Shown here piece by piece: positions 1-19,880 of a DNA stretch of 38,484 nucleotides. The stretch is taken from positions 1-38,484 of the IMG/VR virus record IMGVR_UViG_3300031749_000016. One strand, given 5' to 3'. A program made the translations under genes and the position numbers. Source of the DNA: a virus (taxonomy: Duplodnaviria > Caudoviricetes). The notes under the pieces are model-generated. The model was not told the origin of the DNA. It saw only the letters and a list, made by a program, of their open reading frames with translations, and ran no database searches. Each line of letters opens with the position of its first letter. Position 1 is the stretch's first letter.

Positions 1-158
1 AATGGTATAAAGGAACACCATTTCTTTATCTATATGCGGGTGGAGCAATATTGATTGAAATTTTTTCTGATACTTTTAGAAAAATATCAATTCAATTCGA
101 AATATTTTCTGATACTAAAAGAAAAATATTTACATTAGAAGAGATTTATTCTGATATT
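1..158. repeat. Terminal direct repeat/assembly overlap, left copy
   Basis: Identical to 38327-38484 except C109 vs T38435. Confidence 0.97.
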
Positions 159-1145: not shown

Positions 1146-1405
1146 TAGAAGTGAAAAAAAGCGATAAAGTTTCTTTAATATTTGAACCGAACATAGCACT
1201 CAGCAATCCAACTATAACTTATGAAATAAAAGATTTAGGTGGTAAAATAATAATCAATGGAAATGGTCTATTCGAAAATGGAGAGATAAAAACTGAAATT
1301 ATTGATTTTTCTAACATAGATGAAGGTTATTATGAGGTCCAAATATATTGTAGCGAGGGATTGGAAACTAAAACTATTTATGAATTTTTGAAAGTGGAAC
1401 AATGA
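1142..1405 (+). CDS. Small beta-rich (Ig/BppU-like) structural protein
   Basis: ATGA overlap with the upstream gene; beta-strand pattern with EGYYEVQI. Confidence 0.45.
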   Translation: MIEVKKSDKVSLIFEPNIALSNPTITYEIKDLGGKIIINGNGLFENGEIKTEIIDFSNIDEGYYEVQIYCSEGLETKTIYEFLKVEQ

Positions 1406-1902
1406 GAAAGAAAAAAGTCAACAGAGATGAAGTTATTGAATTTGCAAGAGAACTTTATCTAACGCCTAATGAAAAAGGATTGCACTATTATTCCCTTCAA
1501 CAGATAGCAGATGAGATTCAACAGAAGTTCAACATCAAGTATACAAGATACAATATTTTTAAGTGGGCTAAGAAATTTAACTGGGATTCTCTCTGGGAAG
1601 AAGCAGTCAAAACAGGAATAACCATTGCAATACAAAAAAAGATAGAAAAGGATAGATCAATCACAGAACAATACAAAGACGCAATCCTCGAAAACAAAAA
1701 AAGGGATGTCGAAATAACGAATGATTTGAAAAATCTTGCTTACGAATTTATAAAAAGCAAAGGTTTCACATCAGTAAGCGAAGCTTTGAAGGCAATTGAA
1801 CTCGCATTAAAATATAGTGGAGAATTCAAAGACGAAGATATTGGTAAAATAACAAGAATTATTTACGAGGTAGTGGATGGAAAAAACAATTCAATTGAGT
1901 AG
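1402..1902 (+). CDS. terS: Terminase small subunit
   Basis: N-terminal HTH (SLQQIADEI...IFKWAKKFNW); directly upstream of and overlapping terL. Confidence 0.75.
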   Translation: MRKKKVNRDEVIEFARELYLTPNEKGLHYYSLQQIADEIQQKFNIKYTRYNIFKWAKKFNWDSLWEEAVKTGITIAIQKKIEKDRSITEQYKDAILENKKRDVEITNDLKNLAYEFIKSKGFTSVSEALKAIELALKYSGEFKDEDIGKITRIIYEVVDGKNNSIE

Positions 1903-3154
1903 ACCTCAGATGGAAGTAATAAGGTCTAATAAAACTATAACGGCATTTATTGGAGGAACAGGTTGCGGTAAAACTTTTATTGGCAGTTTATGGTCCATCA
2001 AAATGCTTAATGAAGGTTCAGGAATGATAGTTACTCCTTCATATCCTATGCTGATAAGATCAACTCTTCCAACATTTCTTAAAAATATAAAAGATACCAT
2101 ACTAAGCGGAATTTATTTAGAGCAAAAAAAGATTTATGAATCAAGAAATGGAAATGTCATTTACTGGGGTAGTGCTGATAATCCTTTAAGTTTAGATGGA
2201 CCTCATTTAGATTGGGCTTGGATAGACGAAGCAGGATTAACAAATATCACTACATTTGATGTAGTGTTATCAAGAATTGCGATGAAAAATGGAAGATTAT
2301 TGATCACAACAACTCCAAATCTAATAAAAACAAGAAATTGGATATTTACCGAACTTTATGAAAAAAGAGATCAAGAATATCTTAAATATATCCACTCAAT
2401 TAGTATTGACAATCCTTTTTATTCAAAAGAAAAATTTGACCTTTTGAAAAAGATATTGGATGAAAGAACTTTTGCAGTTAGACATTTGGCGCAATTTATA
2501 AGAAGTAGTGCATTAGTTTACTATGAACTATTGGACAAGATATTCATTGACCCTTTTGTTTTGGACAATACTTGGGATAGATATGTAGTTATAGACCCAG
2601 GAGTTATTTATGGCATTTTATTCATAGCGAAAAAGGATGAAAAAATAGTTGTATACAACGAATACAAAACTAAAGGAGACAAAGTTTACACTGCTAATGA
2701 AATAGCGAACATTATTCTAAACATTGAAAAAAATATAAAACTTATTATTCACGACCCTGCAAGAATATTGGATGCTGTAAATTTAAAAAAAGAATTGAAA
2801 GATATGGGATATGATGTAAATTTTTATGCTCCTGAAATTAGAGATGTAAGAGAAGGAATAGAAAAAGTTATTGAACTAGGCAAAACAAATACTCTCAAAG
2901 TTTTTAATAATTTGAGAAGATTAAAGGATGAATTTGAAAGTTATCATAGACCAATTGATGAAACAACAGGACAAATTTTAGACGAAAAGCCTGTAAAGGA
3001 AAATGATGATCTTTTAGATTGCTTAAGATATGGTATAATTTTCTTATGTAAGAAAACAATTTTTGCTTCTGCTGTTATAGCTGAAAATCAAAAAATATTA
3101 AGAGGAAGCGAAGGCTTGAAAAACTTTATAAATAGGAGAAAATATGGACAATAA
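1877..3154 (+). CDS. terL: Terminase large subunit
   Basis: Walker A GGTGCGKT, Walker B AWIDEA, coupling motif TTTP, nuclease acidic residues VIDPG and DDLLDCLRY. Confidence 0.95.
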   Translation: MEKTIQLSRPQMEVIRSNKTITAFIGGTGCGKTFIGSLWSIKMLNEGSGMIVTPSYPMLIRSTLPTFLKNIKDTILSGIYLEQKKIYESRNGNVIYWGSADNPLSLDGPHLDWAWIDEAGLTNITTFDVVLSRIAMKNGRLLITTTPNLIKTRNWIFTELYEKRDQEYLKYIHSISIDNPFYSKEKFDLLKKILDERTFAVRHLAQFIRSSALVYYELLDKIFIDPFVLDNTWDRYVVIDPGVIYGILFIAKKDEKIVVYNEYKTKGDKVYTANEIANIILNIEKNIKLIIHDPARILDAVNLKKELKDMGYDVNFYAPEIRDVREGIEKVIELGKTNTLKVFNNLRRLKDEFESYHRPIDETTGQILDEKPVKENDDLLDCLRYGIIFLCKKTIFASAVIAENQKILRGSEGLKNFINRRKYGQ

Positions 3155-4478
3155 TTTAGATGATAGAACTTTTAGAAGATTAACAACAAGTCAAAGGGAT
3201 CTTCCTAGTTATCAATTTGATAGACAAGCAAGAATAGTTTACTATTTATGGCAAAACAATGCGATGGCAAGCAGAATAATTGAATTGATGGTTGATTTCA
3301 TAATGGGAGATGGGATAACTTGGTCTGTACCTTGTAAAAAATTAGATGACATTTTATGGGAGTTTTGGAGTGATCCAGACAATGATTTTGAACTTTTTCA
3401 ATATTCAATGGTTGAGGAACTTTTTTTGTATGGAGAATTCATTTTACCTTTAATGGTCTTAGAACCATCTGGAAAAGTCAAAACAGGATACATAGATCCA
3501 ATAAATGTTATTGAAGTTGTTAAGAATCCTTTCAATTCGAGAATAGCAGAAGAACTTAGAATAAAGGTAGAAAATGAAAGCGGTATTCCTGAAGAAAAGG
3601 TTGTAAAAGTTATTAAAAGAGATAAAGATGTTCTAAGCAAAACATTCGGGAAACTAATAGGAGATGTAATGCTTTTTCAAATTAACAAAGTATCAAATGC
3701 AAGCAGGGGTATAAGTGAATTATATAGACTTGCCGATTGGATAGATGGTTTGGATAATTCATTGTTTTCAAGTTTGGAAAGAATATATCATCTAATGTCC
3801 TATATCTGGGATGTAACGATTAAAGATGTTTACGATAAAAAACAGCTTGAAGAGATAAAACAGGAGATTTTAAAAGAACCATTTACACCAAGTTCAATTC
3901 ATATCCATTCAGATAAACAAACAATCAATACCCTTTCTCCAGATTTAAAGTCAGAACAAATAACAAATTATGTTGAACTGCTTAGAAACTTTGTTTTAGG
4001 TGGAGCAGGAATACCAACTTCCTGGTATGGAGAGGGAGATATAACAAGAGCAACAGCACAAGAACAAGGAACGCCGGTATTAAGAAAGTTGAGAAGAAAA
4101 CAGAAGTATGTTAAAAAAATATTTGAAAAAATATTTGAATTTGTAAAAGAAAAGGCAATTGATTATAAAAGAATTGAAAAAGGAAAAGATTATCAAAACG
4201 AGGATGAATTGAATATAGAAGTTGTTATGTCAGAAATAGCAGGAAAAGATATTGTAAGTTTAATTAATTCAATGGATGGGATTGTGAAAGTTTTAGTAAT
4301 GGCTGAAAATCAAGAGTGGATTAGTAAGGATAGAGCAAGAGAGATTTACAACCAATTTATGAAAAGAATTTTAGATATAGACATTGAACCAGAAAATGAA
4401 ATAGAGGATAAACTCGCTGAAGCAGAGAATAAAAAAATATTAGAGTACTATGAAAGAATTAAACATAAGGAACCTTAA
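3144..4478 (+). CDS. Portal protein
   Basis: 444 aa after terL; LFLYGE, RGISEL and GIPxxWYG-type motifs. Confidence 0.88.
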   Translation: MDNNLDDRTFRRLTTSQRDLPSYQFDRQARIVYYLWQNNAMASRIIELMVDFIMGDGITWSVPCKKLDDILWEFWSDPDNDFELFQYSMVEELFLYGEFILPLMVLEPSGKVKTGYIDPINVIEVVKNPFNSRIAEELRIKVENESGIPEEKVVKVIKRDKDVLSKTFGKLIGDVMLFQINKVSNASRGISELYRLADWIDGLDNSLFSSLERIYHLMSYIWDVTIKDVYDKKQLEEIKQEILKEPFTPSSIHIHSDKQTINTLSPDLKSEQITNYVELLRNFVLGGAGIPTSWYGEGDITRATAQEQGTPVLRKLRRKQKYVKKIFEKIFEFVKEKAIDYKRIEKGKDYQNEDELNIEVVMSEIAGKDIVSLINSMDGIVKVLVMAENQEWISKDRAREIYNQFMKRILDIDIEPENEIEDKLAEAENKKILEYYERIKHKEP

Positions 4479-5961
4479 AGGATACAAAGATGCTTCATCA
4501 AGATTTATTAAAGCACTATCATCCAATATAAAACAAATGAGCGATTATGTGAACAACTTATTAACTAGTCTTCCATCAGATAAATTTAATGTTTTCTACT
4601 ATACTCAAATTAAAAATCAACTTGATGAATATTCTAAAATATTAGGTGATAAAATAGAAAAAGATTATGAAGAAACTTTGAATCAACTTCAAACTGCAGC
4701 TATGGATAAATTAGGTAAAAACATTGATACTGCAGGAATCAAAGGATATATGACTCCATTTTTATCTCCAGAGATGATAAAAGAATTTTCAAGTATATCA
4801 GCAGAGTATGTGAAAAATATTCCTAACGAAATACAAAATGAAATTGAAAAAACATTGCGAATATCAGCATTATCAGGCGACACGGTTTTTGATATTCAAA
4901 AAAAACTTGGTGGAAAACTTGAAGGCTATAAAGGAGTATTCAAAACAGGAGAAAACAGAGCAAAAGCAATAGCAATGAATGAATTGTCAAGGGCTTATTC
5001 AAATATGGATTGGCAACAAATTCAGGAATTAGGCAGTAGATTAGAAGGTGTCGCACAAGTATATAAGGTCTGGCATTCAAACAAAGACGAAAGAGTTAGA
5101 CCAGCACATTTAGAAGCAGATGGGCAGGAAGTATTGTGGAATGAACCTTTCATAGTGAATGGAGAAGAATTGATGTATCCAATGGATCCAAATGGAAGTC
5201 CTGGAAACACAATAAATTGTAGATGTTGGATGACTGTAAAAATTGTCCCGATTGAGGAAGAAAAAGATTCATTCATTGATAAAATGAGCGATGAAGAGAT
5301 AATCACTTCTTTTATGAAAATGGATTTATTCGATTTACTTGATAATTCATACAGAGCCTACCAAAATGACATTATATTCAAAGATCTTCCTAGTAGTTTA
5401 AAATCAATATTTTTCAATCTAAAAACAGAATATCCAAAATTCTTAAGAAAATGTTTGAAAGGGTCAGGTTTTGAAGATGCAAAAGAAGTTAAGTCCTTTT
5501 TGAAAATACTATATCGAACAAGTATGGAAAATGAAAGTGCAAGTAGTTATGGTGATCGGGCTTTTGAAAAATACTTTGATAGTAATACGGATCTTATTAA
5601 AAAACTTAAAAATTTCACCTGGAATGCACTCAAAGAATTAGGTTTGGTACAAAATGAAAAAATTACATTGTATAGAGGAGTAAACAAAGGTGCTTTATAT
5701 GAATCAGGACCGGAAGGAGAAGAACAACTTAAAGCTGAATATACACCATGCAATAAATATTTTGAAAGTTGGAGTATAAGTAAAAAAGTTGCCTCAACTT
5801 ATAGCAGTGGTTACATACTAACAAAACAATTCACCAAAGATGAGATATTGTTAGTCCCTGATTTTGTATCATTTGCGAGCTTTTACAATCAAGAAATAGT
5901 GATTTCAGCAAAAACTATGAAGATAAAAGGGCTAAAAGGTGATATGTTTCATTTAGAATAG
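4450..5961 (+). CDS. MuF/SPP1 gp7-like minor head protein with C-terminal ADP-ribosyltransferase-like domain
   Basis: MuF motifs KVWHS..DERVRPAH..DGQ, YPMDP, INCRC; C-terminal LYRG / ESWS / QEIV triad. Confidence 0.8.
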   Translation: MKELNIRNLKGYKDASSRFIKALSSNIKQMSDYVNNLLTSLPSDKFNVFYYTQIKNQLDEYSKILGDKIEKDYEETLNQLQTAAMDKLGKNIDTAGIKGYMTPFLSPEMIKEFSSISAEYVKNIPNEIQNEIEKTLRISALSGDTVFDIQKKLGGKLEGYKGVFKTGENRAKAIAMNELSRAYSNMDWQQIQELGSRLEGVAQVYKVWHSNKDERVRPAHLEADGQEVLWNEPFIVNGEELMYPMDPNGSPGNTINCRCWMTVKIVPIEEEKDSFIDKMSDEEIITSFMKMDLFDLLDNSYRAYQNDIIFKDLPSSLKSIFFNLKTEYPKFLRKCLKGSGFEDAKEVKSFLKILYRTSMENESASSYGDRAFEKYFDSNTDLIKKLKNFTWNALKELGLVQNEKITLYRGVNKGALYESGPEGEEQLKAEYTPCNKYFESWSISKKVASTYSSGYILTKQFTKDEILLVPDFVSFASFYNQEIVISAKTMKIKGLKGDMFHLE

Positions 5962-5970
5962 GAGGTGAAA

Positions 5971-6207
5971 ATGATTAAGTATAAAAATCTTTTTGGAGAG
6001 TATGAATTCAATGAAAAAACAAAGGAATTAATATTTAGACCAAATTATATGAAGAGAGTTTTTAAATACAAAGGACTTGATGATCTTGTTGAAGGAAAAG
6101 GAAACAATTTGAAATACGATTATCAAATAGTAAGCAAAGCAAGATATGGTTTAGGCGAAATCTATAAAAAGTATAAATTTAATATGGAGGAGTTAAGAAA
6201 TGTATAA
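5971..6207 (+). CDS. Hypothetical protein (possible immunity partner of the MuF toxin)
   Basis: AGGAGG RBS before ATG 5971; lies directly after the toxin-like domain. Confidence 0.5.
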   Translation: MIKYKNLFGEYEFNEKTKELIFRPNYMKRVFKYKGLDDLVEGKGNNLKYDYQIVSKARYGLGEIYKKYKFNMEELRNV

Positions 6208-6538
6208 AAAGATTCATTTAATAACAGACCTTATGGAAGCGGTTGGAGATACACCTTTATATTCTTCCAAATTTGGACTTCCTACTGCTTGCAAAGATCA
6301 TACTTGGCAAACTATAGTATCAGCAAGCGAAGGAAAAGAACCTACTGCATTATCAATAAAATTGGAAGGAAGCATAGATGGTGTAAATTGGTTTACTTTG
6401 GATTCAACAACTAACACATCAGGTGAAACAAAATACATAACAGGTAAAGTTGTAGATTTTATAAGATGTAAAGTTGAAACTTCAACTTTACCTTCAGGTT
6501 CTGATGCTGTTGTGAATGTTTGGTATATAGGAAAATAA
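6200..6538 (+). CDS. Small beta-sandwich protein, probably virion-associated
   Basis: GGAGG RBS; KLEGSIDGVNWFTL...FIRCKV jelly-roll-like pattern. Confidence 0.5.
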   Translation: MYKKIHLITDLMEAVGDTPLYSSKFGLPTACKDHTWQTIVSASEGKEPTALSIKLEGSIDGVNWFTLDSTTNTSGETKYITGKVVDFIRCKVETSTLPSGSDAVVNVWYIGK

Positions 6539-6540
6539 AA

Positions 6541-6711
6541 ATGTCAAATGAATATATTTATCAACACACTTTTGCAGAACCAAATGATTTTTCAACCACT
6601 TTTTTTGATAAGAATTACGATAACACTTTTTTATATGAAAAAATTATTGATAAAATAAATGTGATAATAGAAGAACTTGAAGAACTTAAAAAACTAATAA
6701 ATAGTTTTTAA
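6541..6711 (+). CDS. Hypothetical protein
   Basis: ATG 2 bp after the upstream stop; C-terminal coiled coil. Confidence 0.5.
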   Translation: MSNEYIYQHTFAEPNDFSTTFFDKNYDNTFLYEKIIDKINVIIEELEELKKLINSF

Positions 6712-6723
6712 AGGAGGAAAATT

Positions 6724-6903
6724 ATGACTAAAAAGAAAAAAGAAGAAAAGGAAGAAATTAAAGAGATTAAACCTGTTGAGGCAGATAAATTAGATTTGAA
6801 CACCATAACATTTATAACTAAAAGAAGAATTGACCATAACCATACAGAAATTGTTTACCATTTCAAAGATGGAACATCAAGTAGTAAAATTATAAATAAA
6901 TAA
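6724..6903 (+). CDS. Hypothetical 59-aa protein (not in ORF track)
   Basis: AAGGAGG RBS, ATG 6724, MTKKKKEEKEEIKE...KIINK, TAA 6901-6903. Confidence 0.7.
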   Translation: MTKKKKEEKEEIKEIKPVEADKLDLNTITFITKRRIDHNHTEIVYHFKDGTSSSKIINK

Positions 6904-6925
6904 CTAAAAGAAAGGAGGTGCTCTT

Positions 6926-7438
6926 TTGAAAAAATTTTTCAATGTAAAAACTATTGCTCTATGCGGTGTTATTGCAGGTCTTAACATTGTTCTTACTTTA
7001 TTTTTTCAACCAATTGCTTATGGTCCACTACAATTTAGATTAGGAGAAATAACTGCTTGTTTTGGTATCTATGGAATTCCATACATACTAGCAGGCATAT
7101 TAAGTGGAATACTAGTAAATCTATTTAGTCCTTTCAATCTTCTATGGGAAGTAGTTATAGATACACCAATTTTTTTGATTGCACAAGTTGTTTTGTATAT
7201 TATTCTTAAAAAACTTTCTGCCAGAATTGATAAAAACAAACTTGCTTTATTATATTTACTTGGAGTTGTAATTTTGGTTGGTATTGTAGTTGGAAATATG
7301 CTTCATTTTACTATTGGATTACCTTTTGGCATAACATTTTTAGAAATAGTATTGAGTGAATCTCTTACGCTATTCCCCGGATATTTTTTGATTGTTAGAC
7401 CTGTTGCAAGGATTCTTAAACTAGAAATGTTTGCATGA
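6926..7438 (+). CDS. queT: QueT-family queuosine precursor transporter (ECF S-component type)
   Basis: Strong RBS plus TTG start; about 5 hydrophobic helices; signature PIAYGPLQFRLGE and G.L..NLFSPF. Confidence 0.82.
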   Translation: MKKFFNVKTIALCGVIAGLNIVLTLFFQPIAYGPLQFRLGEITACFGIYGIPYILAGILSGILVNLFSPFNLLWEVVIDTPIFLIAQVVLYIILKKLSARIDKNKLALLYLLGVVILVGIVVGNMLHFTIGLPFGITFLEIVLSESLTLFPGYFLIVRPVARILKLEMFA

Positions 7439-10400
7439 AAAAAAGGAGCTTGAGGGAGAGATTTATTATTTATCTTTCAGTCTCTCCCCCAATGGTCAAA
7501 AAATTATACAACGATTACAATCTAAAACATTTTCTTGTTTCATACAAATATCTTAAAAACCTAAGTAGTAGTAATCTAGAGTTTCTTGATTGGGTAAAAG
7601 AAAGACAAGTAAAGGATCCTCAATTTTATTTAATGATGGACAGCGGAGCTTTTAGTAATTTTGTTGCTGGTAAACAAGTAGTAAAAGATAGTGAATACAT
7701 AGATTTTATAAAGAAGTATGGTGATTGTTTTGATGAAGTTATAATGCTTGATAGACAGAAACCAAAGATAAATGAAGAAATATATGAATCATTGTATAAA
7801 GGTATTTCTTGGTATGTAGATCATACGGGAGGAAAACCAGAAAACTATCCAAAAACATTTAATCTGTGGAAAAAAGAAGAAAAAGTTGGTGTTGCTGGTG
7901 ATAGATCATCTGATTCCAATCCTATAACATATGTAAATATGATAACTAAAGGTAGGAAAACCAAAGAGAGTTTTGACATCAATACAATTGCAAAACTCAG
8001 AAAAATATCAAATGAATTAAAAACAAAAACTCATTATTTCGGCACAATCAATAATAAGATTTTAACAGGAGCACAACCACATTCAACGGATATTAGTTCA
8101 ACAGGGGCAGAAATTGGACAACTTATGTATCTAGTGAAAAACGACGAAGGACAATACATCAAAAAATGGATTCATTACAGGAATCCTGACCTTCCAAAAG
8201 AAGTCAAAGAAATGTTAAACAAATTATCTGAAAAAGAAGCTCCATCTACGGCAAGAAAAATATATAATTTCAAAGTTTTATCAAAACTCGAGGATTTGAT
8301 AAACAAAGGAAAATTCGCTTCTAAAATTGATTGGGATAATCTAAAAGAGGATGTTTTTGAATTTGAAGAAGATTATTACAAAGATTTAAAGGAAGGTATA
8401 GTTTTACCTGACCTACCTTACAAAACAATGTATCAAGTTGAGGGTCTTAAAAATAATATTAGAATAACATTTCTTGGCACAAAAGGAGAGATTGAAGAAG
8501 AAAACAACAATCATAAAAAAAACACATCTATACTAATAGAACATAAACATAAAAATATTTTGATTGATTTCGGATATTCTCATAAAGGAAAATTTTTTGA
8601 CATTGATCCAGATATTCTTTTTATAACTCACGCACATCCAGACCATATTGGTGGACTTCCTGAAACAATAGATATCCCTGTTGTTTTATCAGAGAAGACA
8701 CTAAAACTAATGAATAAATATAGATTTGAAGATCCTCATACGGAAGAAAGGGGTAGTTTTTTTGGTTGGTTAGAATACGAAATGATACCAGTGGAACATT
8801 CAATACTTGCTCCCGCTAATGGATACATTTTAAATGTCGATAACAAAAAAATAGGTATCTTCCCTGATTTTCTTAAAATCAAAGAATTAAGCAAACTAAA
8901 AGATTTGGATTTATTGATTGCTGATGGCAGTTCTATAAAACAAAACATTGAAAGAAAGTACAATATAGGTCATCAATCAATGCAAAATACATTAGATATG
9001 GCAAAGGATTTAAATATCAAAAAGGTAGTTTTTATTCATTTTGGAAAAGAAGTTGTTGAAAAAGGAAACGAGAATACACTGAAGGAATTATCAAGTAGTG
9101 TCCCTTTTATCTTAGCTAATGATGGAGATTCGCTTAAAATTGAAGAGAGTTTAGATTTCAAAACAGATCAAGACCTACAAGAGAGTTTTGAAGAAACCAA
9201 AAAAGAACTACTGAAAAGAGGTATTCTAAACCAAGATGTGAAAGCAATTACATATATACCTCATTTTGTTTGTTTAGTTGGTTCAAAAGCAAAAGGAATT
9301 GATGACGAAAATTCAGATTGGGATATAGTTATAAGAAAACAAAATAGAGATGAAAGTGTAGAATTATTGGTAAGAAATTACTTCGGAAAAGATAAAAACT
9401 ATCATTTCATTTATTCACCAACAGGACCTCACGGAGATTATATACCACTATTCGATTTGAAATTAATACCTAAACCATTTGAATTAATAAAAGTCGAAGA
9501 AGATTTTAAACCTATGAAACTTTATACACCACCAAAAATGGGTAGTGCCTATAGTTTTGAAGAGTTTTACGATATAAATGATTTATACGAGAATTGGGCT
9601 AAACCTTATCTTGATAGAGGAGAAACTTTATTCATAGAAACAAAAATCAATGGTTGGAGAACTACCATTCATAAACTTGGAAACGAAAAAGGTATGTTTT
9701 TTGAAGGCACAGAGAGGAATAGATTAGAATTTTTTCAAAAATTGAAAAAAATCATAGAAAACATTGATGATGACTTTATTTTGGACGGGGAATTAGTTGG
9801 TAGAAGAAAATCAAATAACGAAATTATACCAAGAAAAGATCTTGCACTTTTTAACTCAAATGAAAACATAGATTGCGATAGTTTTACGACAAGTGAGGGA
9901 GAGGAGGGATATATTGATGTTGTATTGTTTGATATCCCTTATTACAACAGGGATATTTCGGAATTACCACTGATAGAAAGAAAAAAATATCTTAAGAACT
10001 TTGATAAATACAAATATTTTTCAATAGTAAAATCAATTGAAGTAAAAGACAAAGAAAGTTTCTTAAAAGCGGTTAAAGAGGTATCAGAAGAACAAGGCAG
10101 TGAAGGAGCGGTTGTTAAAACAGCAAATTCAAAATATACGGAAGAAGAAATTCCTGATTGGGCTAAGTTTAAAAAAATATTAGAATTCAAAGTAAAAGTG
10201 ATCGATAAATTAGAAACAAAAGATAAAAATGCTTTCAATTACATTGTTAGTTATACAAAGGATGGAAAAGAATTGGAACTTTGCAAAACAATGAATACAA
10301 AAATTGATGCAAACAAAGGTGATATTTTAACATTAACTGCAGAAGAAATAATTATTAATGATGACCTAACCATTTCGGCTCAGATTCCGAGAGTTAGAGA

Positions 10401-10929
10401 TTTGGATTTAAGTAGAAAAGAACCTGATAGAATACAAGATATTGTTTACAAAGCATACAAATTTGGACTACTACATTGTAGCGATGATATAAAGAAAAAA
10501 TTCTTTGAAAAATACAAATTAAAAGAAGGATGGATTACATATCAGGGTAGAAGAATACTTATCAATGATATGTCAAATGAAACAACATTTAGTATAAGAA
10601 AATCATATGCAACAGAAAAAAGGAAATTTATTGAATCTAATGTATCAGGAGAAAAACACGCACTAAGACATTGGAAAAGTAAGGAAGAAATGAATAAAGC
10701 AATAGACAATGCAATTAAAGAAGGGATTCTATTTTCTGGAAAAGACCAATCTGGTAGGACAAGAAATCTTTTCTATAATAAAAGCGATAGAACTCTTGTA
10801 ATATGTGGAGAGAAAGGAATTTTTAATTCATATAGAGTGGATGTACCGAATCCTGAAGGTTACATATACAAGATAACCAATAATTTTAAAGTTGGTTTAG
10901 GAGGGAAATTGCAGTATGAACGAGTATGA
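7435..10929 (+). CDS. 1164-aa polyvalent protein: TGT/DpdA-like barrel, MBL-fold hydrolase, Pol-beta-like nucleotidyltransferase, ATP-dependent ligase, toxin-like tip
   Basis: MMDSGAFS (7639), THYFG, STDISS; ITFLGT, IDFG, THAHPDH (8626), VEHS, GH, FIH; LVGS.A.G..SDWD (9274-9324); ligase motifs ETKINGWR, ILDGEL, LFDI, EGAVVK, WAKFK plus OB-like region; WITYQGRRILI then HALRH domain. Confidence 0.8.
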   Translation: MKKRSLRERFIIYLSVSPPMVKKLYNDYNLKHFLVSYKYLKNLSSSNLEFLDWVKERQVKDPQFYLMMDSGAFSNFVAGKQVVKDSEYIDFIKKYGDCFDEVIMLDRQKPKINEEIYESLYKGISWYVDHTGGKPENYPKTFNLWKKEEKVGVAGDRSSDSNPITYVNMITKGRKTKESFDINTIAKLRKISNELKTKTHYFGTINNKILTGAQPHSTDISSTGAEIGQLMYLVKNDEGQYIKKWIHYRNPDLPKEVKEMLNKLSEKEAPSTARKIYNFKVLSKLEDLINKGKFASKIDWDNLKEDVFEFEEDYYKDLKEGIVLPDLPYKTMYQVEGLKNNIRITFLGTKGEIEEENNNHKKNTSILIEHKHKNILIDFGYSHKGKFFDIDPDILFITHAHPDHIGGLPETIDIPVVLSEKTLKLMNKYRFEDPHTEERGSFFGWLEYEMIPVEHSILAPANGYILNVDNKKIGIFPDFLKIKELSKLKDLDLLIADGSSIKQNIERKYNIGHQSMQNTLDMAKDLNIKKVVFIHFGKEVVEKGNENTLKELSSSVPFILANDGDSLKIEESLDFKTDQDLQESFEETKKELLKRGILNQDVKAITYIPHFVCLVGSKAKGIDDENSDWDIVIRKQNRDESVELLVRNYFGKDKNYHFIYSPTGPHGDYIPLFDLKLIPKPFELIKVEEDFKPMKLYTPPKMGSAYSFEEFYDINDLYENWAKPYLDRGETLFIETKINGWRTTIHKLGNEKGMFFEGTERNRLEFFQKLKKIIENIDDDFILDGELVGRRKSNNEIIPRKDLALFNSNENIDCDSFTTSEGEEGYIDVVLFDIPYYNRDISELPLIERKKYLKNFDKYKYFSIVKSIEVKDKESFLKAVKEVSEEQGSEGAVVKTANSKYTEEEIPDWAKFKKILEFKVKVIDKLETKDKNAFNYIVSYTKDGKELELCKTMNTKIDANKGDILTLTAEEIIINDDLTISAQIPRVRDLDLSRKEPDRIQDIVYKAYKFGLLHCSDDIKKKFFEKYKLKEGWITYQGRRILINDMSNETTFSIRKSYATEKRKFIESNVSGEKHALRHWKSKEEMNKAIDNAIKEGILFSGKDQSGRTRNLFYNKSDRTLVICGEKGIFNSYRVDVPNPEGYIYKITNNFKVGLGGKLQYERV

Positions 10930-11782
10930 AACATTTGTAAAAGAACTATTAGAATTCGAAAACAACGATCCTTTATCTATGGCATTGGTTTTGGAAATAT
11001 GGAGCGACGGAAATGTTGATTTAGATGAAGAAACTTTGAAAAAAGTAAAGGAGGTTGCTCTTGATTGGTACGATAGTGAAAAAATAGATAAACTATTCAA
11101 TAAAAGAGAAACAAAAAAAGAAGGGGAAGATGAAGAAGAAGGAAACTGGAAAGATTTTGAACCATATGTAAAAAAAGATGATGAGGGTGAATTTGTTCTT
11201 CAAGAACACGAAAGAGGACTAACAGAAGAGCAGGCAAAATCAGGAAGAAGATTTGAAGGCAAAGAAAATATACATTGTGATTTAAGATTGAAATTCAAAG
11301 ATAATGATTTTTTGATAGGTTTTACTTTAGCAACGCCTGGAACAGCACACGGGATAAACAAAATAGTAGAACCAGATAAAGGAAAGGCATTGCTTGTTGG
11401 AGTAAAAAAAAGACAACCAATTGCTTGGCTTGATGTAGGAAAAGGAAAAGATATGTTCAAATCAGGTGCAGTTGAAATGAATTTGTATGGAAATAAATAC
11501 AAGGCAGATTTATCAAGTTCAGGTCAAGTTGGTTCAACGGCATACACTTGGAGCAGGTTTACAGCAATTGATTATGGAAAAGTAAAGGCAGGTAAACAAG
11601 ATAAACATTACAAAGAATTTTTTTTTGATGGAAAATATGGTATACTGAAAGGTAGATGGATAGTTCAAGGTGTACCATCTGAAAATATGAAAGAAAAAGG
11701 TGCGGAAATAGATAAAAGAATTTGGTTTTTTAGCAAAGGAGGTGATAATGGAACAGATACTAATGGACAAGACAATAAATGA
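10916..11782 (+). CDS. LigD-type 3'-phosphoesterase-domain protein with acidic helical N-terminal extension
   Basis: FVLQEH...HCDLRL, IDYGK and LKGRW match the LigD PE pattern FVxQxH...HxDxRL...DxG...LxGxW. Confidence 0.72.
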   Translation: MNEYETFVKELLEFENNDPLSMALVLEIWSDGNVDLDEETLKKVKEVALDWYDSEKIDKLFNKRETKKEGEDEEEGNWKDFEPYVKKDDEGEFVLQEHERGLTEEQAKSGRRFEGKENIHCDLRLKFKDNDFLIGFTLATPGTAHGINKIVEPDKGKALLVGVKKRQPIAWLDVGKGKDMFKSGAVEMNLYGNKYKADLSSSGQVGSTAYTWSRFTAIDYGKVKAGKQDKHYKEFFFDGKYGILKGRWIVQGVPSENMKEKGAEIDKRIWFFSKGGDNGTDTNGQDNK

Positions 11783-14054
11783 ATATATACCAATAGTTGT
11801 TAAAGAAGCGGATAAAGAAGGCAAAAAATGGAAAGTATTAGTAATCCAAACAGGATTGAGTAAAAACGGAAATCTGTATACACAAGAAGTTCTCCAAAAT
11901 AGTGCTAAAAAATTTAATAATGTAAAAGTTTTTGCTTATGAATTTTCAGGAAAATATTTTGAACACTTACCTGAAAATCTTGAACTTGATAAAGGGTATA
12001 TAAAAAATCTTGTAGGAGATTTAAACGATTGCAGATTTGAAGAGATAGATGAAAATACTTCTGGAATAGTTGCTGATTTGAATGTATATAATGATTTTTA
12101 TAGAAAATTGTTCAAAAATATGTATGATGAAGGTAAAATGGATGTTGTTGGTTTTTCAGCGGTTATGGAAGCAGAAGTAGAACCAGAATATTTTCAAAAT
12201 AAACAAGTAAATGATGTGAAACAAATATATAATGTAAAATCAGTAGATGTTGTATCCTCACCAGCTGCAGGTGGAAGGATACTTAACATAATCGAAAGTC
12301 AAAGGAGGAAAGAAGTGGAAAAAGAAAAGATAATCAAAAACATTGAAGCACTTGCTCCTGAATTACTTGAGGGCAAGAATATTGAAAGTATTGAGGAAAA
12401 TGAGTTAATAGATTTATTAGCAGAAGCAGTCGAGAAAAGTTTAGAATCAAAAAAGAAAAATAATCCAGAAGATAAAAAGAAAGAAGAATCAAAAGAAGGA
12501 GTCCCTGAAGAGATATTAATCCTGAATAAAATTAAAGAACTCTTAAAATCAAAAAACACTGATGAAGCTATGAAAATGATTGATGATTTCATAAAGGTAA
12601 AAGCAAAAGGATATGGTTATCCCTCACCATCCTATGGTTATCCTGCACCAAAAGAGAGTTTAGATGATATCAAAAAAACAATGGAAGAACTAAATAGTTT
12701 TAAAACGATGTATTATCTTGAAAGATACTTGAATGAATCAAATCTACCTGAACCAGTCAAAGAAAAAATAAGAAAAATGTTTGAAGGTAAAACTTCAACT
12801 GAAGAGGAAATAAAAAAGGTGATAGATATGGAAAAAGAAAGTTTAACAAAAATTGTTGAAAGTTTAGGTGTCCCTTATGGATTTACAGGACAGGATAAGG
12901 CTAAAGTTATTCTTGATGAATACGATAAAAAACAAAGAGCAGTAGAGCTTATGGTAGGATATAAACCTGATGAAAGTGAAAAAAGTTTATATCAAGGAAT
13001 AAAACCTTATACTGGATTAAGAGAGGCATATACAGATATAACAAAAGATTATGAAGTTAGTTTTTCTCCAAAACACTTTTTGAAACTTTCAGAGTCATTC
13101 CCTGGAGGATTTGTGTCAACAAACTTCCCCCAAATACTTGGTGATGCAATAAACAAAAGACTTATGAAAGAATATCCTATGGCAACTTTAGATTTATGGA
13201 GAAAGTTTTGTTCTGTTGTCCCTGTTAAAGATTTCAATGAACAAAAGATAATAAGATGGGGAGCGCTTGGAACATTAAGTTCAGTCACAGAATCAAACAA
13301 CTACAATGAATATACAATTGGCACTGGAAGTCTTGAAGAATATGCTACATATTCAGCTGATACAAAGGGAGTTGTGGTATCAATAACAAGACAGATGATA
13401 TTATCGGACAACCTTAAATTTGTTGAGAGAATACCAAAAATGATTATTAGAGCAGCTGTCAGAACAATAAATCAATTTGCTTTTGATCTCTTGCTTTGTT
13501 ATGGAGGAACACCACCTGCAATCAATGGAGCTGACATATATGATAATCATCATTTATATGATGCAACCAATCATAGAAACCTTCTTACTGATGCTTTGGC
13601 CTATGATTCACTTCTAACAGCAATGAAAAAAATGAAACTACAATATGTCGATGCAATGGATAGCTCATCTGAAGTTGATTACATTGGCATCTCTCCAAAA
13701 TTCCTTGTAGTCCCTCCAGATTTAGAACCAACAGCATTGACATTAATCAATAGTGATAGAATACCTGGTAGTGTTGACAATGATGTAAACATTTTAAAAG
13801 GCAAACTTGAAATAATTGTTTCACCTTATCTTAGAGGAGATTCTGACAACTGGTATGTTGTTGCTGACCCAAATGAAACAGATACAATTGAAATAGGTTT
13901 TGTGCAAGGAAAAGAAACTCCTGAAGTTATAGTTCAAGACAATCCTCTTATGGGGTATGTTTTCAATGCTGATAAAATTTCATACAAAGTAAGATATGAA
14001 TTTGGAGGTTGTGTTGCAGATTACAGAGCCTTCATTGGATCAATTGTTTCATAA
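11748..14054 (+). CDS. Prohead protease - scaffold - major capsid protein fusion (Mu gpT-like capsid)
   Basis: Protease motifs GLSKNGNLY, EH, GFS, SVDVVSSPAAGG; charged scaffold; capsid motifs STNFPQIL, PKFLVVPPDLE, WYVVADP, KVRYEFGG..DYR; RBS favours ATG 11748. Confidence 0.9.
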   Translation: MEQILMDKTINEYIPIVVKEADKEGKKWKVLVIQTGLSKNGNLYTQEVLQNSAKKFNNVKVFAYEFSGKYFEHLPENLELDKGYIKNLVGDLNDCRFEEIDENTSGIVADLNVYNDFYRKLFKNMYDEGKMDVVGFSAVMEAEVEPEYFQNKQVNDVKQIYNVKSVDVVSSPAAGGRILNIIESQRRKEVEKEKIIKNIEALAPELLEGKNIESIEENELIDLLAEAVEKSLESKKKNNPEDKKKEESKEGVPEEILILNKIKELLKSKNTDEAMKMIDDFIKVKAKGYGYPSPSYGYPAPKESLDDIKKTMEELNSFKTMYYLERYLNESNLPEPVKEKIRKMFEGKTSTEEEIKKVIDMEKESLTKIVESLGVPYGFTGQDKAKVILDEYDKKQRAVELMVGYKPDESEKSLYQGIKPYTGLREAYTDITKDYEVSFSPKHFLKLSESFPGGFVSTNFPQILGDAINKRLMKEYPMATLDLWRKFCSVVPVKDFNEQKIIRWGALGTLSSVTESNNYNEYTIGTGSLEEYATYSADTKGVVVSITRQMILSDNLKFVERIPKMIIRAAVRTINQFAFDLLLCYGGTPPAINGADIYDNHHLYDATNHRNLLTDALAYDSLLTAMKKMKLQYVDAMDSSSEVDYIGISPKFLVVPPDLEPTALTLINSDRIPGSVDNDVNILKGKLEIIVSPYLRGDSDNWYVVADPNETDTIEIGFVQGKETPEVIVQDNPLMGYVFNADKISYKVRYEFGGCVADYRAFIGSIVS

Positions 14055-14065
14055 AGGAGGATAGT

Positions 14066-14383
14066 ATGGGAACAACTCATTTCAAAAACAATGTGGAGAT
14101 CGGAGGCAGTTTAATAATTAATAGTTTAGCACGCTCAGAAAAAAATCTTGATATAGATTATGGGACCAAAACCCTAACAAATGACACATTAACGGCAGTA
14201 ACAACAGGACTTACAGAGGTTCTTGTTGTAGTAGCAACAGAGAGTGTCGAGGCAGGAACTACTCCAGCTTCCAAAATTCTTGCTTATGCAGGCACAGGAG
14301 AAAACAAAAATAAAATATATCTTAAAGCAAAAGGAGCAACCGGAACAACAACTGTAAATTGGATTGCAATAGGAATACTATGA
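14066..14383 (+). CDS. Probable capsid decoration/cement protein
   Basis: AAGGAGG RBS; follows the capsid gene; Thr/Gly-rich, ends VNWIAIG. Confidence 0.55.
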   Translation: MGTTHFKNNVEIGGSLIINSLARSEKNLDIDYGTKTLTNDTLTAVTTGLTEVLVVVATESVEAGTTPASKILAYAGTGENKNKIYLKAKGATGTTTVNWIAIGIL

Positions 14384-15039
14384 AAGTAGAAATTGATTAC
14401 TTTGTAAACAAGGTAAATATAAACAAAGAAGATTTAGAAAGGCTTAAAGGTCTGGAGATTAGAAAAGCTTTTGAAAAAGCAATTGATATTGCTAAAGGAT
14501 ATGGATTAAGAAAAAGAAAATTTAGTATATACACATTTACAGAACATTCAAGGGAGGTTAATCTCACCTCCCTTGAGCCTAATTTTGAAATTGAAAGTTG
14601 CATTATTAGTAGTATATTTTCTGATGACAAAACGAGGCAATACTACTACGATTTAATCTATGAAAAAGATGAAAATATATATATGATTCTATCAGATTAT
14701 TTCAATAAAGGCGATACGATAACAATAATTTATGAAATACCTTATTCAATTGAGGAAGATAACGATGGAAATAAATACATAGATATCAGTCAATATGATT
14801 TTAATATCTTAGAGCTAATTTTTGAAGGATGTTTGATGGAAAGAATAGGAATGTATTATTCTAAACTTTCAATGAAAGAAATAGGTTCAGACATTACTAC
14901 CAATCTTGACAGAGCAAGATTTTATATAGAACAATCATCAAGGTATCTTTCAGATGCAAGCGGATTAATCAAAAAAAGAATTCCAACCGGTAAAAGCATA
15001 AACTATAGGGTAGGAAAGGAATGGCTGACTCATTTGTAA
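14380..15039 (+). CDS. Putative head-tail adaptor
   Basis: Position and ATGA coupling only. Confidence 0.45.
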   Translation: MKVEIDYFVNKVNINKEDLERLKGLEIRKAFEKAIDIAKGYGLRKRKFSIYTFTEHSREVNLTSLEPNFEIESCIISSIFSDDKTRQYYYDLIYEKDENIYMILSDYFNKGDTITIIYEIPYSIEEDNDGNKYIDISQYDFNILELIFEGCLMERIGMYYSKLSMKEIGSDITTNLDRARFYIEQSSRYLSDASGLIKKRIPTGKSINYRVGKEWLTHL

Positions 15040-15485
15040 TTGAAGTAGATACGAGTAAATACAAAACTTTACCTTCTGAAGTTGAATTGAAATTAAAAAT
15101 TGGCCTAAGTAATATGGCACAAGATATGTATAACGATATTAAATCAGGAACACCATCAGGAGCAACTCACCAATTACAAAAAGGAATAAGAGTTTATCCA
15201 AGCGGTTTGAATTTAACATACTATGTTTCTTCAGGACCTACTTTGTATGCTTTACCAGCTTTTTTAGGCAGTAAGCCTCACTTCCCTCCAGTAGAGCCAT
15301 TAATAAAATGGGTGGAATTAAGAGGTTTTGCAAGTGAACTTGGCAAGAATTTATTCAAAAGGGCTTTTGTTCTTGCAGTATCAATTAGTAAAAGAGGCAC
15401 TATTGGAATAGAGAACAAAACTCACTTATGGGAAAATACTTTTAATAAGTACAAAAATAAAGTAGGTGAATATTTAAAAATATGA
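15021..15485 (+). CDS. HK97 gp10-like neck/tail-completion protein
   Basis: TP..T..L..GI, YA....GSKPHFPP...LIKWV, ISKRGT motifs. Confidence 0.7.
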   Translation: MADSFVIEVDTSKYKTLPSEVELKLKIGLSNMAQDMYNDIKSGTPSGATHQLQKGIRVYPSGLNLTYYVSSGPTLYALPAFLGSKPHFPPVEPLIKWVELRGFASELGKNLFKRAFVLAVSISKRGTIGIENKTHLWENTFNKYKNKVGEYLKI

Positions 15486-15943
15486 ATCCAATTTATGAAT
15501 TTATAGATAGTTTCAAAAAAAATATAAACAACGAACTAAAAGTAAATGTATTTGATTATAGAATTGATTTCAGCGAAAAAAAATTAGATGATTTATTATC
15601 TTTTGGAGAGATAAATTTTGTAATGGTGTATCCAGAAAGAGTTAACTTTGCTCTACAATTCAAAGACACAAATATAAGAAAATTAGTAGGTTTTATAGGG
15701 GTAGATTATTACTTGGTATATAATACTACGAACATAGAAAATTTTCTTGGAAATGTCGAAAAAATAGGCGAAACGATAAACAATATAATATCAGATATTT
15801 TTATTATTACTGAAGACCTTAATTTTGTATGCGATGAAGGTTTTATTGCTGGCATTCTTGTTAGACACGCTCATTGCAGTGTTAAATTAGAAAGTTATAC
15901 AATTGGAGATAAACAATTTTGTAGCATAGGAGAAAAAGAATGA
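15482..15943 (+). CDS. Putative tail terminator
   Basis: Size and synteny. Confidence 0.4.
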   Translation: MNPIYEFIDSFKKNINNELKVNVFDYRIDFSEKKLDDLLSFGEINFVMVYPERVNFALQFKDTNIRKLVGFIGVDYYLVYNTTNIENFLGNVEKIGETINNIISDIFIITEDLNFVCDEGFIAGILVRHAHCSVKLESYTIGDKQFCSIGEKE

Positions 15944-16683
15944 GTTATTTAACAAAAAACGAAACTTTAGAAATACTTGATAGTTTTGCTTTAGCAATAG
16001 ATAGATTAAAAGAAGTATATGGAACTGGAACAGAGACAGGAACTGCTTCTAAATGTTTGAGAACAAATATTTCAAGAATTCTACAATTAACAAACTTCAT
16101 AGATTACTATACAGCAATAAGACCTCTATTGGATTATACAAATGATGTTTACACTAAAGTTTTGAATTCTTATTTATCAGAATTTTTCAGAAATCCTTTA
16201 TCAAGAATCTGGGCTTTGCAAGATAACGATTTGGATAGTTTTTTGACTAGTAATGATGCAAGGATACATCCTAATATCAAAGATGTATATCAAGATAACA
16301 ACAGAATAATATCTCCTTCAAATGTTATGTGTCCTCCAATAACTAATGCAGGAACCTATTCAATTACAGGTGGCTCAGGAACTTTTACAGATGGAGATGC
16401 TGTGGATACGAGTAAGTATGGTAAAACTCTTTTTAAGGTTAAAACCACAACTAATATAGGTTCAAGTGATTTGACTTTAACAATCACTTGTAAAAAAATA
16501 AATAATACAACGGAGGATAAACAAGTTGTGATACCTGGGAATACTGCAAGCGGTGTGGAATTTAATATAGGAAACGGAACTACGGATATGTATATAGATA
16601 TAACAAATATTACCCACACTGGAGGAAACAACGGAGATGCAGTCCAATGTTTCTCTGTGTGGGAGAGAGAATTATCTGAATAA
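15940..16683 (+). CDS. Structural protein of unknown function
   Basis: Helical N-half, Thr/Gly-rich beta C-half; lies in the tail module. Confidence 0.45.
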   Translation: MSYLTKNETLEILDSFALAIDRLKEVYGTGTETGTASKCLRTNISRILQLTNFIDYYTAIRPLLDYTNDVYTKVLNSYLSEFFRNPLSRIWALQDNDLDSFLTSNDARIHPNIKDVYQDNNRIISPSNVMCPPITNAGTYSITGGSGTFTDGDAVDTSKYGKTLFKVKTTTNIGSSDLTLTITCKKINNTTEDKQVVIPGNTASGVEFNIGNGTTDMYIDITNITHTGGNNGDAVQCFSVWERELSE

Positions 16684-16701
16684 AAAGGAGGTGAGTGTAC
16701 T

Positions 16702-17010
16702 ATGGCATATGCATTTGGAACTTGTGGTGTACCAAATCCTATTGGAGGCGGAATAGTAGATACTTATGAAAAATCATCATCTTGCACTTTGAAAACACTT
16801 GAAGATTGTGATGGAAATGTAGTTGAAGTTAAGGCAACAGGAAAGAAAAAAACTTTTAGATGGGATGTAGTTGGTGTTGATGACACAAGTATTGAAGCAG
16901 GACAAGAAGGATTAAATGGAGGAATATACACATCTGTTTCGATTAGATATAGAAGAGGTGATTATACTATTGCAAGCGCAACTGAAGAAGCACCAGTAAT
17001 TTCTCCATAA
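16702..17010 (+). CDS. Putative minimal tail tube protein
   Basis: Strong RBS, beta-rich, upstream of the chaperones and tape measure. Confidence 0.5.
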   Translation: MAYAFGTCGVPNPIGGGIVDTYEKSSSCTLKTLEDCDGNVVEVKATGKKKTFRWDVVGVDDTSIEAGQEGLNGGIYTSVSIRYRRGDYTIASATEEAPVISP

Positions 17011-17011
17011 T

Positions 17012-17401
17012 ATGGAAAAGAAAGATAAAGAAAAAGAATTCTCTATAAAAGATATTCCTGTTACTCCAAATTTTAAATTTGAAAAACGGCCTGTTGATTA
17101 TGTAAAATTCAACAATCTTTTTAACAGACCGCTTGAAAGAGCATCCACCGATTCAGATTGGATACATAATACTTTAGGTGAAGAAACCTGGCTAACATTT
17201 TGGGCTTGGAGAGCTTGGTGTTTAGACCATCAAATGAGTCCTAAAGATGAAATACTCTTTTTGGAATTCTGCTCTATTTTTAGCATAGATGAAATTCACG
17301 AGATCTTTGGAAAATACTTTATAGGAGAACAAGAATTAGAAAAATTGAAAAAAGAGATTGATAAACTAAAAGAAGAAATACCAAAAGAAAACAATAAATA
17401 A
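17012..17401 (+). CDS. Putative tail assembly chaperone
   Basis: Synteny. Confidence 0.45.
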   Translation: MEKKDKEKEFSIKDIPVTPNFKFEKRPVDYVKFNNLFNRPLERASTDSDWIHNTLGEETWLTFWAWRAWCLDHQMSPKDEILFLEFCSIFSIDEIHEIFGKYFIGEQELEKLKKEIDKLKEEIPKENNK

Positions 17402-17402
17402 G

Positions 17403-17747
17403 ATGTTTATCAATATTGATGACGAGATCCAACATTCAAAACTTGCTGAAGAGATTGAAAATGAATGGAAACCGGCATTCATTGATGGATACAGAATAAC
17501 AAGTAGAAGCTTTCAGGGAGTAATGTTGAAATTGTATTGCAGTTTAAAATATTACTATGGATTGACACTTGAAGAATTTTTAACTACTCCAATAGACTTA
17601 TTGGTTGATATGCTTGATTGTGTGAATGATAAATATGAAAGCAGAAAATACGAATTTGATATGGCAATTCTTAAAGTAGAAAAAGAAAAAAGAAAAATGA
17701 AGACAACGAGGTTTGATAAGTATCTAATGCAAAAAGATAAATTATAG
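17403..17747 (+). CDS. Putative tail assembly chaperone 2
   Basis: Directly before the tape measure; GLTLEEFLTTP motif typical of GT-like chaperones. Confidence 0.5.
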   Translation: MFINIDDEIQHSKLAEEIENEWKPAFIDGYRITSRSFQGVMLKLYCSLKYYYGLTLEEFLTTPIDLLVDMLDCVNDKYESRKYEFDMAILKVEKEKRKMKTTRFDKYLMQKDKL

Positions 17748-17757
17748 AGAGGAAGAG

Positions 17758-19599: not shown

Positions 19600-19880
19600 G
19601 CTATAAAATCAAATCAGATACCGGTGATTATACTTTAAAATTGCAATCTGTAAGGGATACTCCAAGAGGAAGTTTTGCTTCCCCTGGAGGTTATAGAACA
19701 TACAGACAGGTCACTATTTGTATTGAAAAAGATAATAACGGTCAACCAACAGAACAAATACTGAATATTCTAAATTCCGAATTCCCTGACTATATACTTA
19801 CTCAACAACCATCTGTATCTGCTCCAGAAAATACAAAATGTATATATTTTTCGATGACTTTATTAAAGGTAGAAAAATGA
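19596..19880 (+). CDS. Putative distal tail protein
   Basis: Synteny after the tape measure; TTGA overlap. Confidence 0.35.
   Translation: MSYKIKSDTGDYTLKLQSVRDTPRGSFASPGGYRTYRQVTICIEKDNNGQPTEQILNILNSEFPDYILTQQPSVSAPENTKCIYFSMTLLKVEK

Follow-up and report, generated by a model that had tools for sequence, protein, structure and literature searches.

The head module of the Caudoviricetes virus IMGVR_UViG_3300031749_000016, analyzed as a single stretch of 38,484 nt (the window), contains three overlapping genes. They encode a QueT-type importer, a 1164-aa multi-enzyme protein that opens with a DpdA-type DNA-guanine transglycosylase domain, and a 288-aa protein with a barrel resembling the phosphoesterase (PE) of LigD. 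The reading that we favor, at somewhat better than even probability, is that the 1164-aa polyprotein is prohead cargo whose DpdA domain would act late in infection, replacing guanine in phage DNA by imported preQ0 or preQ1, and that its remaining enzymes travel as independent cargo. The modules likely have a common address, not a common pathway. The features are as follows.

6926 to 7438, plus strand: QueT ORF, 170 aa; ECF (energy-coupling factor) S-component-type importer with queuosine precursor as predicted substrate (PF06177, E 9e-16; 58.9 bits against a cut-off of 33.7)
7435 to 10929, plus strand: polyprotein ORF, 1164 aa, overlapping queT by 4 nt
7435 to 8319, plus strand: DpdA-type DNA-guanine transglycosylase domain, aa 1–295, with D69, S70, D106, H130, G203 and D219 (phrog_887, E 4e-10)
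8458 to 9147, plus strand: metallo-beta-lactamase (MBL) fold class II phosphodiesterase of the YhfI/Apyc1/RNase Z group, HxHxDH intact (THAHPDH at aa 398; PF12706, E 1e-10)
9244 to 9471, plus strand: minimal Pol-beta nucleotidyltransferase (NTase) with G616-S617, D628 and D630
9508 to 10464, plus strand: ATP-dependent DNA-ligase adenylation domain and a conserved C-terminal domain that we take to be of OB type (PF01068, E 2e-21)
10528 to 10929, plus strand: tip, a short WITxxGRRI hairpin and a BECR-like alpha/beta fold with H1075 and H1079, weakly predicted to be an RNase
8386 to 10530, plus strand: candidate head-protease cut sites in the linkers, LKE320-G, LQE583-S, VEE688-D and LKE1031-G
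10916 to 11782, plus strand: LigD-PE-like ORF, 288 aa, overlapping the 1164-aa gene by 14 nt; divergent barrel at aa 90–275 that keeps H98, H120, D122 and R124 and has Q167 and W171 at the His78 and Tyr82 positions (MbaPE numbering)

A sequence-only reading of the window had described three overlapping genes between the MuF gene and the protease-capsid gene, and these are present, as is every motif that it quoted. Its calls of QueT, a tRNA-guanine transglycosylase (TGT)-type barrel, MBL, NTase and ligase are borne out by profiles, with QueT, MBL and ligase passing their Pfam cut-offs.

By its sequence the barrel is a DpdA of the DNA type. It carries the TGT-type motifs DSGAFS at aa 69, HYFG at aa 200 and STDISS at aa 217, and the equivalents of D102/S103/D156/G230/D280, where D280 is the nucleophile, are D69, S70, D106, G203 and D219, all invariant (roles of the catalytic residues in the transglycosylase fold are described in PMC5699537). 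The full catalytic set including H130, which alignment equates with the conserved His named for DpdA in PMC6884629, is invariant in all three family sequences. A profile of three family members matches gp7 of Streptococcus phage Dp-1 (E 6e-8 in a small database; hhalign probability 72), and a 17-sequence DpdA profile searched against the PDB returns the DNA-guanine transglycosylase 7UI4 at E 1.6e-6 as the sole entry below E 0.3 and no tRNA TGT at E ≤ 10. At the base-pocket position the window family has His instead of Gln, as in 7UI4, with the His column aligned. The domain therefore combines the DpdA catalytic residues with greater closeness to DpdA than to tRNA TGTs and a linkage to 7-deazaguanine supply, whereas it has no match to solved TGTs or to PF01702, and aa 1–300 hold a single Cys where a TGT would be expected to have a C-terminal zinc-binding domain. 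Insertion of the base into either DNA or tRNA had been proposed; the resemblance to Dp-1 gp7 and 7UI4 makes DNA, not tRNA, the most likely target. We class the barrel at the level of the DpdA family and not within one of the DpdA subfamilies 1–4. The domain would likely swap an imported guanine-like base, preQ0 or preQ1, into phage DNA. Searches of GenBank phages by tblastn with the DpdA and PE domains found nothing, and metagenome and viral scans returned matches from the window's own population only. A single-sequence fold model of the DpdA domain was discarded (pLDDT 40.6), as were eight short, uninformative NTase-motif matches from a genome scan.

The link from importer to transglycosylase, also part of the sequence-only reading, holds: queT overlaps the DpdA gene, and relatives of this DpdA adjoin synthesis genes. 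Specifically, FolE, QueC, QueD, QueE or QueF neighbors occur at 26 of the 28 non-self viral loci found with the DpdA profile (21 of 23 once five near-copy pairs are merged); one of the remaining two has queT, followed by DpdA (L052), and the other has neither. Three loci (L042, L053 and L061) have two tandem or nearby DpdA-like genes per preQ0 cluster. The window QueT scores above the PF06177 gathering threshold, shows the hydrophobic helices of the family as four hydrophobic peaks, is preceded by an AGGAGG site and reaches Dp-1 QueT by tblastn at E 9e-3; two further QueT matches, H4 and H5, were set aside as apparent bacterial fragments with no DpdA match. Its activity presumably requires a host ECF module. 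Pfam, PHROG and Dp-1-derived profiles detected no preQ0 or Que synthesis gene in the window, and because the genome is circular and no such gene was found, the window DpdA would depend on salvage or on the host pool.

A tie between DpdA, precursor supply and the head module extends beyond the window. In a quick tree of 39 rows, the window trio joins L036, L045 and L051 in a six-row clade (SH-aLRT 95), with Dp-1 outside it; domains shorter than 150 aa were dropped, the near-copies L033, L037, L043, L054 (both), L056 and L060 and also L034 were left out, nine proteins from one DpdA set of 15 entered, and Dp-1 gp7 was the sole DpdA type sequence, the 9g, nt-1, phiST and HVTV-1 types having been left out. 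Each of the other clade members with known DNA has its DpdA in the head module and genes for de novo preQ0 synthesis. In L036, FolE, QueC and a DUF5591 protein precede a 1540-aa DpdA-NTase-PE-PE-ligase-XkdF protein; in L045, QueD/E, FolE and QueC precede a DpdA-XkdF fusion that lacks ligase, NTase and PE; and in L051, QueD/E and FolE lie upstream of DpdA, which is followed by a protease-like gene (assigned by eye), scaffold and capsid, with no NTase, ligase or PE domain found within 6 kb of the DpdA. Supply genes thus stand beside DpdA in the head operon of all four DNA-known clade members, and it is precursor supply, not the repair enzymes, that recurs with head-module DpdA: de novo synthesis in the three relatives and QueT salvage in the window. 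In sequence terms the window represents the salvage version of this head-linked branch. The DUF5591 protein beside the head-fused DpdA of L036 (L036:5011-5937) is an observation of its own; PMC10516641 equates a ‘PF5591’ domain with ArcS2, and the L036 phage may synthesize dG+.

The enzymes downstream of DpdA have a distribution of their own. Queries with NTase, ligase and PE yielded 17 lineages with a cassette of these domains, namely the window population, P0005–P0008 and 12 DNA loci (L006, L015–L018 and L020–L026). The cassette adjoins or is fused to Pfam-confirmed head genes in 11 of the 12 loci (in L024 the assignment is by eye only), is fused to the XkdF protease in four of them (L018, L021, L023 and L026) and in L036, and keeps its head-module position across phages with GC contents of 29–71%. 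Around it the other domains come and go: DpdA in 3 of the 17 lineages, MBL in 5, a Dam-like methylase in 3 (P0006, L023 and L024), a uracil-DNA glycosylase (UDG)-like domain in 1 (L026) and the tip in 2. Neither DpdA nor QueT appears in the available sequence of the 12 DNA loci, four of which end at or inside the cassette; counting the distant L036, DpdA, NTase, ligase and PE occur together in four lineages. NTase, ligase and PE are therefore a recurrent head-module cassette, and DpdA, MBL, Dam methylase and UDG are interchangeable additions to it. The proteins carry several effector domains per chain, lie among virion genes and are shuffled between relatives, as is characteristic of polyvalent proteins. 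For the set as a whole, the recurring co-occurrence expected by the sequence-only reading gives way to free shuffling among homologs, the outcome that it had itself named as speaking against it. Two cassettes stand apart: at L016:6155-8473 the cassette, behind the portal gene, has Arg for the ligase Lys (RYDG), lacks the NTase motif and is apparently inactive, and in P0008 and L020:2306-4576 the ligase region is interrupted by an intein or LAGLIDADG insertion.

The ligase assignment rests on the adenylation Lys in KING (K737) together with motifs III–V (D784, E786, D833, E890, K911 and K913), and all 21 PDB matches of the region at E ≤ 0.0005 are DNA ligases; the RNA_ligase model PF09414 also matches, at E 5e-6, but PF01068 scores far higher. 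The C-terminal domain is labeled OB by its position, not by a library match. The NTase has its GS..SDWD motif at aa 616/627 and matches the MntA-type model NF047752 at E 4e-4, and its 70% identical homologue in P0005 matches PF01909 at E 2e-5. For the MBL domain, profile matches to 1ZKP (BA1088), 7T28 (Apyc1) and RNase Z are tied at E 1e-6 to 1e-5, and the best NCBIfam matches are RNase Z models (E 7e-15, far below cut-off). The tip occurs in the window lineage and P0005 only. Its three-sequence model (pLDDT 67) gives VIA Z scores of 4.9–5.2 to toxin–antitoxin (TA), contact-dependent inhibition (CDI) and colicin D RNase toxins among the top five matches, a structural class that we take to be BECR, with no Foldseek match at E ≤ 0.001 and no PBECR Pfam or PHROG match; the model weakly suggests a BECR-like RNase toxin fold.

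The 288-aa protein alone has no Pfam, NCBIfam or PHROG match. Its family profile matches archaeal LigD-PE structures only (3P43 at E 7e-5, and 3P4H), its Atlas feature match is a viral LigD_N cluster (0.90), and an aligned relative, L017, matches PF13298 at E 4e-7. The LigD-type phosphoesterase named in the sequence-only reading is thus right in its profile match but not in its catalytic center: of the H, H, D, R, H, Y set, four of six residues are kept, and none of the 17 family motifs retains the equivalents of His78 and Tyr82 (Q in 12, E in 4 and K in 1 at His78). Judged by these residues, the protein is not classed as a LigD phosphoesterase; so conserved an active-site change may point to a new activity. 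In the window, PE has a gene of its own; P0006, P0007 and other relatives have it fused to the ligase, and in P0006 and P0007 it takes the place of the tip.

That the polyprotein is head cargo, as had been suggested, is probable from head-gene adjacency or fusion in relatives and from motifs in its linkers. An xxE motif is found in three of the four window linkers, and the fourth has VEE-D where its kin have LIE-A/S. Across seven kin proteins, the linkers (767 residues) and the domains (4457 residues) contain [ILVF]xE[SAG] 18 times each, and none of 2000 linker shuffles (mean 3.2) reaches 18, figures whose p-values overstate the case because the motif was picked by eye from these same related proteins. 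The capsid gene has seven such motifs in its scaffold part, including both borders (IIE185-S and LSE451-S), two in the protease part and one in the capsid part. Head proteases of T4, SPN3US and phiKZ are described as cutting after Glu in short motifs (PMC5694885), and the enrichment shared by linkers and scaffold suggests that a head protease cuts the polyprotein. The polyprotein is likely loaded into the prohead and cut there into single enzymes. The xxE motif is not enriched in the XkdF loci, nor are D-type linker motifs in other protease groups.

In the reading that we favor, QueT and the host ECF module would raise the precursor level of the infected cell while the late genes are being expressed; as a membrane protein in a late operon, QueT should act in the producing cell. 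The polyprotein would co-assemble with the scaffold and be cut after xxE, and the freed DpdA, needing no ATP, would exchange guanines on DNA that awaits packaging or is already packaged, blunting restriction in the next host. Once injected, the ligase, NTase and PE-like barrel would act on ends of the phage DNA or on cuts in it, mending or closing them; the MBL domain would hydrolyze either alarm signals made of cyclic nucleotides or the ends of RNA, and the tip would be an RNase that cuts RNA of the host, all likely as independent anti-defence or repair cargo. Action before phage transcription, which had been raised as a possibility for the whole set, fits the ligase, MBL domain and tip but is a poor fit for DpdA, because its importer is a membrane protein encoded in a late operon. 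DpdA of phage 9g expressed alone is reported to yield dPreQ0 in plasmid DNA (PMC6884629), and 7-deazaguanine is accepted to enter phage DNA after replication (PMC10516641). A narrower proposal, possible but on present evidence doubtful, is that DpdAs of this branch act in or at the maturing capsid, where they would be freed by the prohead protease and write 7-deazaguanine into packaged DNA only, using the imported base. If true, this would be a packaging-coupled genome modification that spares the host chromosome and the replication templates. With a head-tied DpdA and its precursor supply in one operon, the site of phage 7-deazaguanine modification and the sparing of host DNA can be tested directly, and the small, complete window genome is the simplest case: it has two parts (QueT and DpdA), and the boundaries of soluble constructs follow from the predicted cut sites.

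Several observations weigh against the favored reading. QueT beside the fusion is seen in the window's own population only (L001 and L033), the neighbors of P0005 and P0007 lying outside the comparison; the window polyprotein is not fused to a protease; the window branch is long (1.71) in the quick tree; and the PE-like barrel lacks the catalytic His of MbaPE, the loss of which is reported to cut product to 2–6% versus 89% for the wild type (PMC3082917). Besides the way in which the xxE motif was chosen, a K-type motif in XkdF/S78 loci is not significant (15 versus 10.3 expected from shuffles, 185 of 2000). Among phages with DpdA only, Orion is described as unmodified and 7-11 as barely modified (PMC6884629). 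Finally, 4-base palindromes are strongly avoided throughout the window genome (CATG at 0.05, CTAG at 0.27 and GTAC at 0.32 of expectation, with ACGT and CGCG absent), which shows restriction pressure and incomplete protection; since this avoidance persists, any modification is not a full shield.

We consider it unlikely that all enzymes of a packaged polyprotein, DpdA included, act after injection only, on the preQ0/preQ1 pool of the new host and with QueT serving the next round. Injection as effectors is described for polyvalent head proteins and for T4 Alt (PMC5512222), and the MBL domain and tip make most sense early, but the supply genes beside DpdA in the head operons of the clade point to demand in the producing cell, and modification after entry would race restriction. 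It is improbable, too, that nothing is packaged and that these are late cytoplasmic enzymes or passengers at an insertion hot spot, with DpdA modifying concatemeric DNA in the cytoplasm: although most DpdA relatives are stand-alone genes and the window protein has neither a protease nor a MuF domain, the head-protease fusions in six loci (L018, L021, L023, L026, L036 and L045), the fixed position across phages of such different GC content and the linker motifs in common with the scaffold all speak for the head.

Slightly less probable again is the single import, insert, heal and seal pathway at the center of the sequence-only reading, in which DpdA would act on DNA, failed exchanges or defence nucleases would break it, and PE, NTase and ligase would heal and seal it, as in base-excision repair. 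The four lineages that combine DpdA with NTase, ligase and PE are consistent with such coupling, as is the base-acting nature of other add-ons, the Dam-like and UDG-like domains. However, DpdA is absent from 14 of the 17 cassette lineages in the sequence available, several being incomplete, L045 has a head-module DpdA and no cassette, no cassette domain was found within 6 kb of the DpdA of L051, and L016 keeps its cassette despite the ligase Arg. Base exchange by the TGT fold, as its mechanism is described in PMC5699537, leaves the backbone uncut, which counts against a coupling to healing and sealing. The last alternative, a tRNA-guanine transglycosylase accompanied by MBL, NTase, ligase and PE as a kit that repairs tRNAs cut by anticodon nucleases, we regard as very improbable, given that the RNase Z ranking of the MBL domain and the RNA-ligase match are outweighed by a base-pocket His, the lack of any tRNA TGT among the PDB matches at E ≤ 10, the far stronger DNA-ligase matches and the lack of tRNA genes in the genome.

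Parts of this arrangement are already known: the queT-dpdA pair from Dp-1, and the polyvalent design, predicted in 2017. Outside subscription papers and supplements, we located no published account of a DpdA-DNA ligase fusion or of an NTase-ligase-PE cassette in a head module. Burroughs and Aravind (2016) is said to treat phage ligases fused to head proteins, and part of the cassette may thus be in print. In Dp-1 (Hutinet 2019, PMC6884629; Cui 2023, PMC10516641), queT (gp6) is annotated directly upstream of, and overlapping, dpdA (gp7), in the same order as in the window and with a homologous barrel and the same catalytic residues, and that part of the combination is accordingly not new. Unlike in Dp-1, whose queT-dpdA lies in a FolE/QueC/D/E/F cluster adjoining replication genes and whose DpdA falls on another branch of the quick tree, the window DpdA opens a head-module protein of 1164 aa, and no synthesis genes were found in the window. 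Dp-1 DNA is reported to carry dPreQ1 on ~1.7% of G (PMC6884629).

Phage polyvalent proteins as described in Iyer 2017 (PMC5512222) resemble the window protein as multi-enzyme proteins among virion genes with shuffled domains, here also with a BECR-like tip, and that paper describes C-terminal assemblin-like peptidases and MuF-fused effectors and predicts head-protease processing. The window protein differs in lacking an MPTase or MuF domain; the main text of the paper mentions TGT and metallo-beta zero times, uses ‘ligase’ in its RNA ligase passage only, and describes Pol-beta NTases as confined to conjugative elements. Compared with LigD and the stand-alone archaeal PE (3P43 and 3P4H; as described in PMC3082917), the window has a PE-type barrel with H-H-D-R adjoining, or in relatives fused to, an ATP-dependent ligase, but a minimal Pol-beta NTase in the place of the primase-type polymerase of LigD, no Ku match in the window and the His78 and Tyr82 replacements. 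The ANMV-1 virus protein AJP62006.1 (KP703175) is likewise an NTase-ligase-PE protein directly behind the portal gene, although it lacks DpdA, QueT, MBL and tip and is annotated as ‘ATP-dependent DNA ligase’ only. Class II phosphodiesterases of the Apyc1/YhfI/RNase Z group, as described in PMC9117128, share the MBL fold and HxHxDH, but the window domain is fused into a head protein and its subfamily matches are tied.

We treated the window as a complete circular genome. Its first 158 bases recur, but for one mismatch, as its last, so that the circular unit measures 38,326 bp, and the junction is spanned by a 404-aa frame; a CheckV completeness of 47%, contradicted by the terminal repeat, was set aside. 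Bases 1–20,000 lie within one 38,356-nt contig of run X1, which is labeled as a hot-spring metagenome and may be the source, the contig starting 2,889 nt earlier. No RNA run was among those listed as containing the sequence. The gene order is terminase, portal, MuF, small ORFs, queT, the 1164-aa gene, the 288-aa gene and the protease-scaffold-capsid gene, with three or four small ORFs between MuF and queT. The two flanking head genes are given below.

4450 to 5961, plus strand: MuF gene with a variable ADP-ribosyltransferase-like C-terminus (PF04233), context and a second likely head cargo
11742 to 14054, plus strand: protease-scaffold-major capsid polyprotein (phrog_15531, PF25209, and NF045541 below cut-off)

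Uncorrected dN/dS values relative to the sister phage L001 (0.03–0.12; QueT 0.23) place all parts of the three-gene set under purifying selection. The MuF C-terminus (window 5260-5961; L001:3527-4240) has diverged between the sister phages while the N-terminal part of MuF is conserved, the pattern of a variable toxin tip; that of L001 matches DRAT at E 1.6e-6, a match that the window's own tip lacks. No tRNA gene, preQ1 riboswitch or other Rfam match was found in the window. An unlisted 59-aa ORF at 6724-6903, with a good ribosome-binding site and no PHROG match, lies directly upstream of queT. A contig of run X4 (record 18) that matches 6847-7152 opens with 29 unrelated letters, which resemble a CRISPR repeat; a spacer of the host, matching the DNA immediately before queT, may be marked by the start of this contig. 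Runs X2 and X3 show an apparent joint, 6819-7870, by which queT and half of DpdA would be removed; it was rejected, its sides being ~18 and ~38 nt (estimated from depth) and the joint absent from the joint table. Elsewhere in the window, an N6/N4 methyltransferase gene is located at 34699-35520, and a papain-like C1 peptidase with a copper-amine-oxidase N-terminal domain, at 24762-25775, adjoins the amidase lysis gene.

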